A stretch of 30,508 nt of DNA from positions 1-30,508 of the IMG/VR virus record IMGVR_UViG_3300027732_000087; one strand, given 5' to 3'. Origin of the DNA: a virus. Its lineage: Duplodnaviria > Caudoviricetes. This document shows positions 1-7,064 of the stretch, in pieces. The notes under the pieces are model-generated. The model was given only the letters and a program-made list of their open reading frames with translations, made no database searches and was not told where the DNA came from. The position numbers were made by a program, and so were the translations under genes. Positions within the stretch are counted from its first letter, which is position 1; each line of letters opens with the position of its first letter.

Positions 1-242
1 TTAATTAATTCTTTCTTCAAATATAGTATTTGTAATCTTAAAGCATCATTTGTTCGTGTTAATTCAGTATTATCGTCTTTAAGCATTTTAAAGACTTCTA
101 AGCTATAGTTCAAATCATTTGCTTCACGTAGTATCACTTTTTGTTTTTCTTCGCTTACACGTTCTAATGCACCTCTAAAAAGCAATCTATTGATGCTTAC
201 CTTTATGTTTAGTCTTGCAATAGCAATATCTGTATCTTTCAT
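1..242 (-). CDS. Hypothetical coiled-coil protein, truncated by the window edge; divergent homolog of 29281..29547
   Basis: Hand translation MKDTDIAIARLNIKVSINRLLFRGALERVSEEKQKVILREA...; ATGA overlap with the helicase stop; shares SINRLLFR and SEEK with 29281..29547. Confidence 0.8.
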   Translation of the reverse strand, partial: MKDTDIAIARLNIKVSINRLLFRGALERVSEEKQKVILREANDLNYSLEVFKMLKDDNTELTRTNDALRLQILYLKKELI

Positions 243-1087
243 AATACGTTTTTTCCTTCGTTTAAAAATTGTGTTCCGTTCTGTAATTTAAACATAATTG
301 GCTCGGCAGCGAATGTAGGCTTACCACCAGTTTCAGTTTCTTTAACTTTCTTGATATGAACTTCTGTAAACATCCAAAAGTTTGTGTGCATTGGGTATCT
401 ATGAATAACAATGAAATCATCTGCACGGTTACCCCACTTACCACCACCTTCAGCATCCGCCATATTCGGTGCCATTGGCATACCTTCATAATCACCTGCT
501 TTGTGCGTTTTACGGAGTGCTTCAGTTGCTGCGTGAATACACATATAGATTGAAGTATTCGTTTTTTTCGCAAACAATCTCAACTTTGTAGCCATTTCAT
601 AATCCAAATCGTGTGCATTAGCAAACTTTGGCTTTAAGAATGAATTGTGTGGGTCAATCATTAAAGTATCATAATCACCTAACACTTGAACTTCTTTCAT
701 AAATTCTTCAATAGTCCAAGCCTTTTGTGCATCTATGAAATCAAAATGCAATTCAATAAAGTTTTTACAATTTTCTAGTTGTTTAGGTAACATATCTTTA
801 ATCTTACATCCTGCATATAATTCAATTAGATTTCTTTTCAATCCGTTAACACTATTTTCGGCTGAATAAATTAGATGCTTAAGATTATGCTTTTTAGCCA
901 AACAAAGCAAGTACCATAAAACCCAGTAAGTTTTACCTACATTTGCGTGTCCTAGCACAATATTGAATGAAGCACGTTTAAATCTTAGGTTAACATCTAA
1001 ATCAATACCTAATCCTAAACCCAAAGGTATTTTATCTAACCTAGACAATTCTAAAAATTCATCACTACTTCTATGGTTAACTATCAT
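239..1087 (-). CDS. DnaB/T7 gp4-like SF4 helicase domain without a primase domain, allele A
   Basis: Walker A GHANVGKT, Walker B LMIDP, IYSAE and ADDFIVIHR motifs; follows the initiator gene. Confidence 0.8.
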   Translation of the reverse strand: MIVNHRSSDEFLELSRLDKIPLGLGLGIDLDVNLRFKRASFNIVLGHANVGKTYWVLWYLLCLAKKHNLKHLIYSAENSVNGLKRNLIELYAGCKIKDMLPKQLENCKNFIELHFDFIDAQKAWTIEEFMKEVQVLGDYDTLMIDPHNSFLKPKFANAHDLDYEMATKLRLFAKKTNTSIYMCIHAATEALRKTHKAGDYEGMPMAPNMADAEGGGKWGNRADDFIVIHRYPMHTNFWMFTEVHIKKVKETETGGKPTFAAEPIMFKLQNGTQFLNEGKNVL

Positions 1088-1203
1088 TTCTTTTTTGTTT
1101 TTATGTGAAAGCCATTTACATCAATTTCATTACCCCATTGGTCGGTTGAAATTACATCCGCTTTTGTATTTATTACATTATCATTTACATTATCATTAAC
1201 AGT
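239..1203. repeat. Left copy of the imperfect terminal direct repeat (partner 29544..30508)
   Basis: Ungapped alignment at offset 29,305; about 47 substitutions by hand count in 239..1076; 1077..1203 is identical. Confidence 0.97.
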
Positions 1204-1509
1204 TATGTTTGTTATCGTTTGATATGCTTTGTTATCGTTTGTTATACTTTGCCATCTTTTAGCCATTCCTTTCTTCCCCGCTTCACTACGTTTGCCCTTG
1301 ATTTCATTGAACTTAACTAAATCACGTTTTAATTGTTGTTTGATTGGTGTGAATGCTAAATTAATAATAATATCTTCACTAATTGGATTTTCATCATTAA
1401 CGTAGGCAAAGATGAACTTAATTAGTTCACCTGCCTTTTCGTTAGATAATTGATTAAACAAAGCATTCTGGTCTGCGTATAGGATAAATCCTTTCTTATC
1501 TTCTGCCAT
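1084..1509 (-). CDS. Phage replication initiator, DUF6291-like N-terminal domain
   Basis: KKGFILYAD...LSNEKAGELIKFIFAYV, RSEAGKKG..KRW and NDNVNDNV linker; directly upstream of the helicase. Confidence 0.7.
   Translation of the reverse strand: MAEDKKGFILYADQNALFNQLSNEKAGELIKFIFAYVNDENPISEDIIINLAFTPIKQQLKRDLVKFNEIKGKRSEAGKKGMAKRWQSITNDNKAYQTITNITVNDNVNDNVINTKADVISTDQWGNEIDVNGFHIKTKKK
1175..1250. repeat. Iteron-like tandem repeats inside the initiator gene (candidate origin)
   Basis: gttatgttt/gttatcgttt/gatatgcttt/gttatcgttt/gttatacttt at ~10 bp period (1202..1250), next to acattatcatt x2. Confidence 0.6.
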
Positions 1510-1510
1510 T

Positions 1511-1981
1511 TTAATTTATTGGATTAAATTTATAATTTCTTTGGTCGTATTTAGATAATCTATCAATATCTTCTTGTGAAATTGTAAACAAATATTTCAT
1601 ATCTTCAACTTTCCAAGCAATAATATTTTTATTTGGGTATATCGGATTATTCAATTGCATTAAATCAGCTAAATGAACACTGCCTGTTTTGTCATCTACA
1701 AATATTAAATAGAAATTAACTGAAGTTATTTTAACAAAATTAATATATTCATTATAACTTTTAATATTTATACCCTGTGCATTCCAATTATTTAAACGTG
1801 CTTTTGTTTTAACATCAATTGCAATAACCTTTTCTTTATTTAATGTACAAATCATATCAAAATAATGTGCTTTATCTTTAGTGAAAGGGCGGTATATTAT
1901 CCACCCTTTTTTTTCTAAAAATTCAGAAACAATATCTTCACCTATATCACCTTTTTTTAATGCTATTTGAAAGTCTGCCAT
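1511..1981 (-). CDS. PD-(D/E)XK endonuclease, restriction-like
   Basis: GDIGEDIV..FL..KGW, FDMIC and IDVKTK catalytic pattern; start overlaps the methyltransferase stop. Confidence 0.65.
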   Translation of the reverse strand: MADFQIALKKGDIGEDIVSEFLEKKGWIIYRPFTKDKAHYFDMICTLNKEKVIAIDVKTKARLNNWNAQGINIKSYNEYINFVKITSVNFYLIFVDDKTGSVHLADLMQLNNPIYPNKNIIAWKVEDMKYLFTISQEDIDRLSKYDQRNYKFNPIN

Positions 1982-3108
1982 TAGAATTTATTTACATCAT
2001 TACCGAATACTTCCCATCCATTTCTTTTTTCTCTACTAAAATATTCTAATCTTCTGCCTAACGTTATATTTTCAATCATTTCAAAAAATGAATCTGGCTT
2101 TCTTGAATGTTCTCTTCTTGGTTCGTTTAAAATATCTCTAAATGTTGTATTCTGCCAATATGGTTTCCCTTTGATTCCTACTATACAAAACTCGCATTGC
2201 ATTCTAAACCAAGCTCCCATTCCTATTTTTTCTTTATTCCATACTAAAGTAGCTTTATAATCTAATCCCCATTCTTTTAAAATATCAAATGCATCTGGTA
2301 AAAATCTATGTGTAGTCCAAAGTAATACAACAGCGTCATCCATTAACGGTATTTCAATTTTTTTAATATCTTCAATACTCATTTCAGGATATGGATTTGC
2401 AACTCTTCTACCTACTGAATCAAATGAAGTTACATTTTTACTTTCTCCTTCATAAGGCCAAGGTGGGTCAACCGAAATAACATTAAACAAACCATCTAAT
2501 TCAGGAAGTAAACCATGCTCAATATCTTCTATCTGTTGCTCAATTAACTCTATTCGCTCTGCTTTCTTTTCTTCTTTCTTTATATCTTGGTAAACTTGGT
2601 TTATACTTACTTCACCAATGCTTAATTGTGCTTTTACTTCTTCACTTGCTTTGGCTTCAATTACTTTTACACGTGCAATAGTTTGTTCACCAACTGAAGC
2701 TATTTTAGCAAGTTCTTTTCTTGTGTCTATTGGCTCACTTTTCGGTGAATTCACCAAAAGGTCAGCACGTTTTCCTTGTTGCTCCTTTGCTCTTTCACTA
2801 AACACACTTTCAAGTTCTAAAGCTAAAACTCCTCTTTGATAGTTGCTTAAATTTCTCCTGCCAAATTGGTTATTAATCATCCATTCTCTTACATCGCTTT
2901 CATCTTTAAAACGTTTGCTTTCCGTTTGATAATCCAAGTTCCAACGTGTAGCAATTTCATAACGGTTATGGCCATCAATTATAAATCCATTCCACGTTAT
3001 AATCTTTTCTCGGATTCCTTCTTCTAAACAATTTGCCTCTAGTTGTTTAAACTCTTCAGCAGTTAGTGCTGGTATTAACTTTTTAAACTCTTCTTTAATC
3101 TCTAACAT
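1981..3108 (-). CDS. ParB/Srx-like N-terminal domain fused to an MT-A70 (IME4-like) adenine methyltransferase
   Basis: IIDGHNRY and GRRNLS in the ParB-like part; DPPW, LLWTT, REHSRKP, LEYFSR and GWEVFGN in the MT-A70 part. Confidence 0.88.
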   Translation of the reverse strand: MLEIKEEFKKLIPALTAEEFKQLEANCLEEGIREKIITWNGFIIDGHNRYEIATRWNLDYQTESKRFKDESDVREWMINNQFGRRNLSNYQRGVLALELESVFSERAKEQQGKRADLLVNSPKSEPIDTRKELAKIASVGEQTIARVKVIEAKASEEVKAQLSIGEVSINQVYQDIKKEEKKAERIELIEQQIEDIEHGLLPELDGLFNVISVDPPWPYEGESKNVTSFDSVGRRVANPYPEMSIEDIKKIEIPLMDDAVVLLWTTHRFLPDAFDILKEWGLDYKATLVWNKEKIGMGAWFRMQCEFCIVGIKGKPYWQNTTFRDILNEPRREHSRKPDSFFEMIENITLGRRLEYFSREKRNGWEVFGNDVNKF

Positions 3109-3127
3109 AATATAATTTATTAAACAT

Positions 3128-3220
3128 AAAAAACCCCTGTACTCCTTTGTGCTTCAACCTACAAATTCATACAAGGGTTTAAACTAAATTCCTTTTGTTA
3201 CTATAATGTTGAAGCGTAAC
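3128..3220 (-). ncRNA. Structured 5' leader: two hairpins with complementary 8-nt loops, the second an intrinsic terminator
   Basis: GTTAC-[GCTTCAAC ATTATA]-GTAAC, then AAACCCTTGTA-TGAA-TTTGT-[AG GTTGAAGC]-ACAAA-GGAG-TACAGGGGTTTTTT. Confidence 0.7.
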
Positions 3221-3225
3221 GTATG

Positions 3226-3255
3226 CAAATATAACTAAATATTCTTAATATTCAA
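3226..3255 (-). promoter_or_regulatory. Bacteroidota housekeeping-type promoter
   Basis: TTG-N19-TATATTTG, an exact fit to the -33/-7 consensus. Confidence 0.8.
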
Positions 3256-3441
3256 ATCTTTATCTATAAATATTCCTCTTCTGCTATCGCATTCATCCAT
3301 CCATTCATCTAAAAGCCAAACATCGTATATTAAAGATGGCAGTACATCAGCTTTTAATATCGCATCTTCTTTGGAATTAGCTTTGCCAATCCAGTATGCA
3401 GGTTGGTTTTCTCTTGTGTAAAATACTTTATAGTAACTCAT
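3235..3441 (-). CDS. Hypothetical protein
   Basis: 68 aa ORF, ATGA-coupled to the upstream gene. Confidence 0.65.
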   Translation of the reverse strand: MSYYKVFYTRENQPAYWIGKANSKEDAILKADVLPSLIYDVWLLDEWMDECDSRRGIFIDKDLNIKNI

Positions 3442-3659: not shown

Positions 3660-3663
3660 AGCT

Positions 3664-3720
3664 AAAAAATTAAAGGGGAAAGGTTTTTATCCTTTACTGC
3701 TGGAACTCCAACACACCCCT
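3664..3720 (-). terminator. Branched terminator-like RNA structure after the SSB-like gene
   Basis: AGGGG/CCCCT closing stem encloses TGTTGG/CCAGCA and AAAGG/CCTTT hairpins, followed by TTAATTTTTT. Confidence 0.45.
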
Positions 3721-3728
3721 AATTAATA

Positions 3729-5243: not shown

Positions 5244-5474
5244 TTAGTTTATTTTATTTATAGTATAACCGTTGTTTTTAGTTCTTTCAATTTCAAATTC
5301 AAGTGAAAGCACACTAACTGATTTACCTTTTCTAATTACTTTTTTACCTATATCTATTTTTGATTTTGCAAATGGATTTAAATACTTTGCAATATTAGAA
5401 GTTAATTCAGAATAAGAATTTCCACTTATAATAGAAAATGTGTTGTTTGGATTTAATACTGTTACGTTTTTCAT
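5244..5474 (-). CDS. Hypothetical basic protein with its own promoter
   Basis: 76 aa ORF preceded by TATATTTG and a leader identical to that of the gene starting at 7005. Confidence 0.65.
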   Translation of the reverse strand: MKNVTVLNPNNTFSIISGNSYSELTSNIAKYLNPFAKSKIDIGKKVIRKGKSVSVLSLEFEIERTKNNGYTINKIN

Positions 5475-5489
5475 TTTGTTTTGTTTTTA
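5466..5489. repeat. 24 bp exact direct repeat of the translation start region (partner 6997..7020)
   Basis: TAAAAACAAAACAAAATGAAAAAC on the minus strand at both sites. Confidence 0.85.
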
Positions 5490-5498
5490 GATTGTTTA

Positions 5499-5506
5499 CA
5501 AATATA
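5499..5506 (-). promoter_or_regulatory. Bacteroidota -7 promoter element
   Basis: TATATTTG about 25 nt upstream of the ATG; -33 element not canonical. Confidence 0.6.
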
Positions 5507-6772: not shown

Positions 6773-7005
6773 AACTCAAATTCTTTAATCTCGTTAATAA
6801 CTTTAAAATAACTAGCCATAATTCTCTTTGTAGCTAACATCTGAATTTCAATTACTAAATCTGATTTTGGTTTAAAGTCATTTGGCGCTGCAATTTCAAC
6901 ATTATATCTTAACATTGATTCATACTTTTCTTGTGATGCTTGTGCTAAATCTAATAAGTCTATTGCTTGATTAGTTAGCTTTGTGATTTGTTTTAAGTTT
7001 TTCAT
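6769..7005 (-). CDS. Hypothetical first early gene
   Basis: 78 aa ORF right after a consensus promoter. Confidence 0.72.
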   Translation of the reverse strand: MKNLKQITKLTNQAIDLLDLAQASQEKYESMLRYNVEIAAPNDFKPKSDLVIEIQMLATKRIMASYFKVINEIKEFEL

Positions 7006-7034
7006 TTTGTTTTGTTTTTATTAATTGATATATG

Positions 7035-7064
7035 CAAATATATATATAATGTTTAGAACTACAA
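7035..7064 (-). promoter_or_regulatory. Major early promoter, Bacteroidota type
   Basis: TTG-N19-TATATTTG exact consensus at the head of the early operon. Confidence 0.82.

Follow-up and report, generated by a model that had tools for sequence, protein, structure and literature searches.

The phage genome and the genes behind the leader

The window, that is, the whole stretch of 30,508 nucleotides that was analysed (IMG/VR record IMGVR_UViG_3300027732_000087), holds a nearly complete phage genome, which includes genes for portal, terminase, tail and recombination functions and in which all ORFs longer than 120 aa lie on the minus strand. The leader described here sits between a 68-aa ORF (3441–3235) and a ParB-like plus MT-A70 methylase gene (3108–1981), and is followed on its own strand by these genes:

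1981..3108, minus strand: first gene after the leader, 375 aa, ParB-like N-terminal part and MT-A70 adenine methyltransferase (PF05063, E 6.7e-23; phrog_359, phrog_12047)
1511..1981, minus strand: 156-aa probable PD-(D/E)XK nuclease, partner of the methylase (feature likeness 0.95 to PDDEXK_14 clusters)
1084..1509, minus strand: DUF6291 protein, probable replication initiator (PF19808, E 1.5e-21; phrog_19415 and phrog_6451, primosomal protein)
239..1087, minus strand: DnaB-like replicative helicase (AAA_25; phrog_18375, phrog_19)

The 156-aa probable nuclease gave no match in Pfam and PHROG scans; ORFs resembling it come after the methylase in most related loci, as judged by eye. The methylase and the probable nuclease (window 1511–3108; loci L122–L198) travel as a pair whose position differs between related phages and which, in L183 and L198, has a leader of its own besides that of the initiator; the pair looks like a mobile restriction-modification-like cassette. 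The DUF6291 protein, at 141 aa, is shorter than most initiators that follow the leader in relatives (190–300 aa) and may be without the C-terminal domain. Among the 40 window proteins scanned (Pfam, PHROGs), many of them unannotated, no integrase or repressor family was matched and no N- or Q-like antiterminator was found.

The contig ends (1–1200 and 29305–30508) overlap with differences: the helicases encoded there are identical at 279 of 282 residues, and a 300-nt stretch is 78% identical without gaps. This probably reflects a circular genome of ~29.3 kb whose assembly drew on a mixture of strain variants. Elsewhere on the minus strand, the intergenic stretch 3660–3728, behind a 99-aa ORF, has a three-way junction as its MFE structure, yet a z-score of only -1.1. 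Early promoter-like TATATTTG boxes at 5462–5506 and 6993–7042 (minus strand) have no structured leader behind them, and the 28-nt A-rich start regions that follow the two boxes agree at 27 of 28 positions.

Anatomy of the leader

A first-pass annotation of this DNA had described a promoter followed by two hairpins, the loops of which are exact 8-nt complements. All of these parts are present where it had placed them, on the minus strand:

3226..3256, minus strand: promoter of the Bacteroidota housekeeping type (-33 TTTG at 3256–3253, 19-nt spacer, -7 box TATATTTG at 3233–3226)
3197..3220, minus strand: hairpin P1, predicted 5' end of the RNA; 5-bp stem GUUAC 3220–3216 / GUAAC 3201–3197, 14-nt loop (L1)
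3208..3215, minus strand: key X (GCUUCAAC) in loop L1, covarying with X'
3181..3196, minus strand: linker, 16 nt, A/U-rich, with a conserved AAAG near its start
3131..3180, minus strand: terminator-type hairpin P2 (lower stem, UGAA/GGAG internal loop, upper stem, 10-nt loop)
3151..3158, minus strand: anti-key X' (GUUGAAGC) in the P2 loop, exact complement of X
3128..3133, minus strand: U6 tract, predicted 3' end of a terminated RNA of ~94 nt

TTTG/TANNTTTG is the Flavobacterium promoter consensus, with the last G of TANNTTTG at -5 (PMC6847099). The predicted +1 falls at ~3221–3220; with the last G of the -7 box at -5 and +1 at ~3221, the RNA would start with P1 and the terminated product would measure ~94 nt. 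The promoter alone is not beyond chance, since TTG-N19-TANNTTTG has two matches in the window, one of them the leader promoter, and shuffles give 1.2 on average. An exact -7 box stands ahead of 10 of the 13 leaders that were detected at methylase loci by a model without the promoter.

Loop L1 consists of GCUUCAAC (3215–3208) followed by AUUAUA. The lower stem of P2 (3180–3170 / 3141–3131) has 11 pairs, one of them U-G; above it lie the internal loop, UGAA (3169–3166) facing GGAG (3145–3142), in which tandem G.A pairs are predicted, and a 5-bp upper stem (3165–3161 / 3150–3146) closed by a loop of AG plus GUUGAAGC. The earlier description can be refined in that the first three U of the U6 tract pair as the outermost three A-U of the 11-bp stem. 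The ATG of the first gene, at 3108, is 20 nt past U6. Both hairpins appear in the MFE and centroid structures (-23 kcal/mol, z -2.6); folded singly, P2 reaches z -3.45 and P1 only -1.3. A loop complement of at least 8 nt, which would allow a loop-loop ‘kiss’ of X with X', arose by chance in 71 of 200,000 composition-keeping shuffles and in 136 of 200,000 draws at genome composition; chance is removed as an explanation by the covariation in homologs described below. No second copy of the leader was found in the window.

Covariation of the two loops in homologs

Homologous leaders were collected along three routes. In route a, a model run on the best 80 of 176 methylase loci gave 33 matches, 23 of them distinct, in which the kiss is 100% paired with seven of eight pairs compensatory, and all five pairs of P1 are changed on both sides (alignment A2). 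Many upstream regions of methylase loci, as seen by eye, follow the design with different keys, some of them 7 nt long, and with different stems. Route b used a pattern of the upper P2 with free loop letters and yielded 99 distinct contexts, of which 28 were kept for having a promoter box and a terminator tail (one being the window phage itself) and 71 were dropped. In these 28 leaders, all 224 kiss cells are paired and five of eight pairs are compensatory; controls with a slid partner gave 27–63%. Route c was blind to the kiss, as its pattern comprised only the promoter, P1 and the AAAG behind P1, so that the conservation of AAAG in its hits was part of the search. An exact 8-nt complement of the loop nonetheless followed 27–32 nt further on in 58 of 74 distinct hits in viral contigs, compared with 35 of 3700 in a shuffled control. 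Among metagenome contigs, the complement stood at the family offset in 48 of 97 distinct hits, the rest being mostly chance matches of the pattern.

For kiss, stem and key statistics, 61 distinct leaders were aligned to the covariance model. Whether loop complementarity is kept in homologs had been set beforehand as a check on the first-pass proposal, and it is kept: 99.6% of kiss cells are paired and six of eight pairs are compensatory, values that 0 of 500 shuffles reached, with the qualification that such homolog counts overstate independent events because the sequences are related (effective number ~24). The kiss is almost purely Watson-Crick, with G-U in 6 of 488 cells. The strongest 16 covarying column pairs all fall within P1, P2 or the kiss, five of them in the kiss, and the pairs of P2 are changed on both sides throughout (lower stem 10/10, upper stem 5/5). 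The stems hold 115 G-U and 0 C-A cells, which identifies the sense strand as the strand that folds. Apart from P1, the kiss and P2, the alignment contains no conserved helix of at least 4 bp.

The first six kiss pairs vary freely: 58 leaders have 16 keys, and leaders that are divergent have every letter different. Nearly invariant are the last two kiss pairs (A-U, C-G), several A of loops and linker, and the A of each predicted G.A pair; these last two, in alignment columns 62 and 86, are unchanged, in keeping with the earlier suggestion that UGAA/GGAG is compatible with tandem G.A. The linker measures 13–17 nt in 83 of 92 leaders. A U tract of at least six T within 8 nt past the last G-C pair is found in 52 of 58 homologs, the hairpins of which have a G-C-rich base and a mean fold energy of -19 kcal/mol. 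These features of intrinsic terminators, shared by the window and those 52 homologs, predict termination. The overall pattern reads as the signature of a fixed geometry, and not of a fixed sequence, under conservation.

A detector free of family sequence found one element in each of six whole contigs, all already known carriers. Among natural variants, L384 and L531 have a weakened or broken kiss and an intact terminator, and L393, compared with L541, lacks most of P2; these may be useful controls or assembly errors. Leaders of other shapes, with a long P1, an extra middle hairpin and a short terminator, or with a much larger P2, keep a 7-nt loop complement in different letters and were missed by models R1 and R2 (L137:2397–2500, L152:2400–2500, L154, L155, L157, L182, L124, L194, L195 and L189).

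Distribution of the leader

The first-pass annotation had not recognised the element as a named family, and the Rfam search bears this out. At the gathering score, Rfam 15 gave 0 matches in the whole window; between 2950 and 3900 the only match was unrelated (E 9.3) and outside the leader. At the same score, 20 methylase homolog loci returned 2 tRNAs only and no match to the leader, and six further loci, searched at E up to 5, gave only three sub-threshold matches (E 0.43–4). The leader is a strongly covarying RNA family, uncatalogued in Rfam, with a function that we infer.

An exact-key search of viral contigs (GCTTCAAC-N35-65-GTTGAAGC) gave, among the matches listed, only chance or coding matches besides the sequence itself, and none of 36 loci from a pattern search of species genomes matched the leader model. 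Model R2 found 0 in five host genomes, 0 in 151 genomes of the order (27 of up to thousands of candidates scored per genome) and 2 in 151 genomes of the genus of G001 (27 candidates scored per genome), one real and one a bare terminator by eye. One of the six whole contigs with a detected element, a 33.7-kb phage contig (capsid, terminase, RecT) in a genome of that genus, carries the leader before an O-like initiator. A blastn search with one homolog leader against cultured phages gave nothing meaningful among the 40 of 45 records listed. No publication on the leader was found in the literature searched, in which subscription journals are thinly covered. Fremin et al. 2023 report 10,006 viral candidate structures, some of them upstream of NUMOD4 and MT-A70 genes (PMC10690425). 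Six leader motif strings are absent from those tables of the paper that were compared, and the leader may be among its unnamed candidates.

Gene context across relatives

The constant partner of the leader is the replication module. Among first and second genes there are matches to initiator, DnaD-like, O-like, primase, Prim-Pol and helicase families, and some match HNH/NUMOD4 nucleases. In its position, the leader agrees with the gate by termination that the first-pass annotation had put in front of the methylase, nuclease, initiator and helicase genes. A link to methyltransferase or SAM is not supported: of 61 first genes (from 63 leaders), 17 are ParB-methylase-like and 44 are not. At 13 methylase loci the leader lies directly before an initiator-like gene, identified by eye from scored relatives, and a helicase, with the methylase upstream. 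L183 and L198 each carry two leaders with different keys (GTCTTCAC and CATCCTAC in L183), the methylase cassette and the initiator being preceded by one each.

In 19 of the 61 cases, a count to which 16 proteins already belonged as members of the profile used for counting, the first gene, standing before the initiator, encodes a very divergent family of ~60 aa (L388:1324–1500 and relatives, alignment A4). Its predicted fold, four strands and a helix, has a pLDDT of 94, and structure comparison matched it best to the single-strand-binding PUR repeat and PC4 proteins (Z 7.6, rmsd 2.0, 56 of 59 residues aligned). Only two of the members scanned in Pfam or PHROGs had a weak PHROG match, and a sequence search of the alignment against solved structures gave nothing clear (best E 0.013). 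We treat the PUR/PC4 likeness as a lead only, because a Z below 8 can reflect a common arrangement and because the window phage has no detectable member. The protein would be a candidate feedback regulator or replication accessory.

Comparison with known systems

The layout of the leader is closest to that of guanidine-IV (GGAM-1 / mepA motif), in which a loop-loop helix onto the terminator has been proposed to strain its outer pairs and so cause read-through (PMC7736828; PMC11611296). As far as the published description goes, both have a 5' hairpin whose loop pairs with the loop of an intrinsic terminator hairpin, neither sequesters the 5' arm of its terminator in a classical antiterminator, and the leader, like guanidine-IV, would control its downstream genes at termination. 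The leader nevertheless fails the loop-base and gene-context tests of that family. Guanidine-IV is described with highly conserved ligand-binding loop bases, whereas six of the eight kiss pairs of the phage leader vary with compensation. By the published table, it occurs mainly in Firmicutes and not in Bacteroidota, whereas the leader is found in phages (PMC7736828, PMC11611296). It precedes SugE, MATE and PnuC transporter genes, none of which appeared among 27 first genes (Pfam) or 71 first and second genes (PHROGs) of the leader, which precedes replication and nuclease genes instead. A SAM or SAH riboswitch is not supported either: no Rfam model matched the leader in the window or the homolog loci searched, and the link to methylases is inconsistent (17 of 61 first genes; 13 leaders with the methylase upstream).

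Termination in satellite phage P4 is Rho-dependent, whereas the leader carries a predicted intrinsic terminator. P4 immunity rests on the CI RNA with seqA and seqC (PMC4825925), and the leader resembles it in having short complementary loops in a phage leader and, by prediction, premature termination before replication genes. In the account given there, P4 has three sites and a processed trans-acting RNA; the leader has two sites, one of them in the terminator loop, and no third was found. A third site of the P4/P1 c4 type was searched for in 105,703 bases around 58 leaders, with 0 further key copies and no start-codon site; in the window, the only two 8-mer key copies besides the leader lie inside structural genes. 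Pairing with the start codon was also tried and rejected: L1 of the window pairs with its own start region at -5.5 kcal/mol, and over 79 leaders the cognate combination is not better than the non-cognate.

The antisense attenuators of pT181 (RNAI) and pIP501 (RNAIII) use a counter-transcribed RNA and a pre-emptor helix on the 5' arm of the terminator (PMC5703833). The leader shares with them, as described there, a terminator just before an initiator gene that would set initiator supply. The first-pass annotation had listed an antisense RNA among the possible deciding factors, and one encoded in cis is disfavoured, as opposite-strand TANNTTTG boxes are rarer in leaders (4 of 56) than in control stretches (11 of 44). 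With neither an antisense TANNTTTG promoter nor a pre-emptor helix found, the pT181/pIP501 design was set aside.

Antitermination in phage leaders is exemplified by lambda PR'-6S-tR' with Q and by the put RNA of HK022, the latter without a terminator of its own. As in these systems, a short leader RNA lies right behind a phage promoter and before replication or late genes; the window matched no Q or N family. We know of no loop-loop helix onto the terminator in either.

A proposed cis attenuator with read-through set by the kiss

We favour, at a probability of about one half, the reading of the leader as a conserved cis attenuator in which a kiss formed before the terminator is complete would let part of transcription through. 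The leader is likely transcribed from a host-type promoter. P1 would fold first; X' would then exit the polymerase and pair with X while the 3' arm of the terminator still lacked about 17 nt. Tied by a short linker to the terminator base and bent at the G.A loop, the rigid kiss would delay or strain closure of the G-C pairs beside the U tract, and a fraction of polymerases would read through. If the kiss did not form or was blocked, P2 would be free to close and the short RNA would be released. In this way initiator, helicase and nuclease would be made in a set dose or under the control of a switch; the likeliest modulator would be a single-strand-binding protein and the least likely a metabolite.

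In nested MFE folds of partial transcripts, X:X' pairs form in 59 of 61 leaders over a median span of 17 nt, and in the window they do so in prefixes of 75–88 nt. Since there is no other conserved helix of at least 4 bp, the kiss alone among conserved elements is in a position to affect the terminator. Against the strain reading, the full terminator with P1 folds at -23 kcal/mol and the X:X' fold at -16, and the 10-nt loop and covarying upper stem would in principle let the kiss sit on a complete P2. Since the full terminator is the more stable and the kiss fits a formed P2, the kiss could equally stabilise the terminated RNA; nested folding programs cannot score the pseudoknot. Linker length and stem height are negatively correlated, which gives no support for a ruler and is uninformative, because a shared boundary produces such a correlation. 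The natural variants with a weakened or broken kiss (L384, L531) or with most of P2 gone (L393), and the window's lack of a detectable member of the small-protein family suggested as modulator, also speak against the strain reading. Of the attenuator or riboswitch-like element originally proposed, the real structured leader, the conserved loop-loop helix and the absence of an Rfam family have stood, and the SAM/methylase link and the cis-encoded antisense have not.

Weighing of other explanations

The possibility that the kiss acts on a finished terminator would make the leader the source of a locked, stable RNA of ~94 nt, with termination as the default. The replication genes would then be reached only with help from a phage or host antitermination factor specific for the fold, in the style of lambda PR'-6S-tR' with Q or of the HK022 put RNA. 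P1, both P2 stems and the kiss covary and can coexist without a competing helix, the few invariant bases are mostly loop or linker A, as expected for tertiary contacts, and such a terminator would also stop upstream early transcripts, because the ORFs above 120 aa all run on one strand. We nevertheless consider this account unlikely, as no N- or Q-like antiterminator was found among the 40 window proteins scanned, many of them unannotated, and a promoter just for a terminated RNA before initiators or nuclease cassettes would be less economical than a gate. The terminated RNA might alternatively act in trans, its loop pairing with that of new transcripts, blocking their cis kiss and forcing termination, as a self-timer or a key-specific exclusion of phages that bear an identical key, akin to P4 CI. 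The 16 keys among 58 leaders, the different keys in the two leaders of one locus (L183, L198), the nearly pure Watson-Crick kiss and the lack of a matched integrase or repressor family in the window would all suit it. Yet the keys show no sign of diversifying selection, since key pairs change no faster than stem pairs (50 changes on the tree over 8 key pairs, versus 90 over 10 and 38 over 5 stem pairs). Some keys are common to many contigs (GCAACCAC in 12, GCTCTCAC in 11), the third key copy is absent from the bases searched around 58 leaders, and in free RNA the two loops would pair with each other, all of which makes this role improbable. More broadly, the roughly 94-nt terminated RNA may be an sRNA, which the first-pass annotation had offered as its alternative.

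We rate lower still a post-transcriptional role, in which P2 terminates only leakily and the read-through mRNA owes to the kiss either a protected 5' end or an A/U-rich start region left accessible to Bacteroidota ribosomes. The start codon does lie a median of 18 nt past the leader, some homologs have broken U tracts (e.g. TTAGTTTT, TTTACCTT), and in Flavobacterium, initiation relies on little structure and on A upstream (PMC6847099). However, L1, X and X' pair with the start region no better than non-cognate combinations do (p 0.87, 0.46 and 0.24; n=79), and the G-C-rich base and U tract are kept in 52 of 58 homologs. Least probable of all is a riboswitch in which a ligand (SAM, SAH, a nucleotide or an ion) stabilises the kiss, even with an overall layout as in guanidine-IV, nearly invariant last two kiss pairs and loop A, and 17 of 61 first genes that are ParB-methylase-like. 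There is no Rfam match in the window, the 20 methylase loci or the six further loci, the kiss leaves six of its eight pairs free to vary, and between divergent leaders every letter is different. A SAM riboswitch in particular is unlikely because only those 17 first genes are ParB-methylase-like; the other 44 are not methylases, and the downstream genes indicate no single metabolite.

Implications

The cis attenuator can be extended, tentatively and with a good deal of doubt, to a ligand-free, key-coded replication gate. The kiss would antiterminate by geometry alone, and either the terminated RNA, as it accumulates, or a protein of PUR/PC4 fold from the gene next behind the leader could switch it off in trans. 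Bacteroidota phages would thus have a timer or exclusion device without a repressor, and mobile nuclease cassettes would reuse the gate with keys of their own.

The leader places a covarying RNA absent from Rfam at the entry to DNA replication in small Bacteroidota-type phages, the gene control of which is largely undescribed. Its many natural keys are ready for swap experiments. If the kiss gives read-through, the leader would offer a natural, ligand-free test of the strain mechanism that has only been proposed for guanidine-IV, and a small orthogonal part for transcription control in Bacteroidota.
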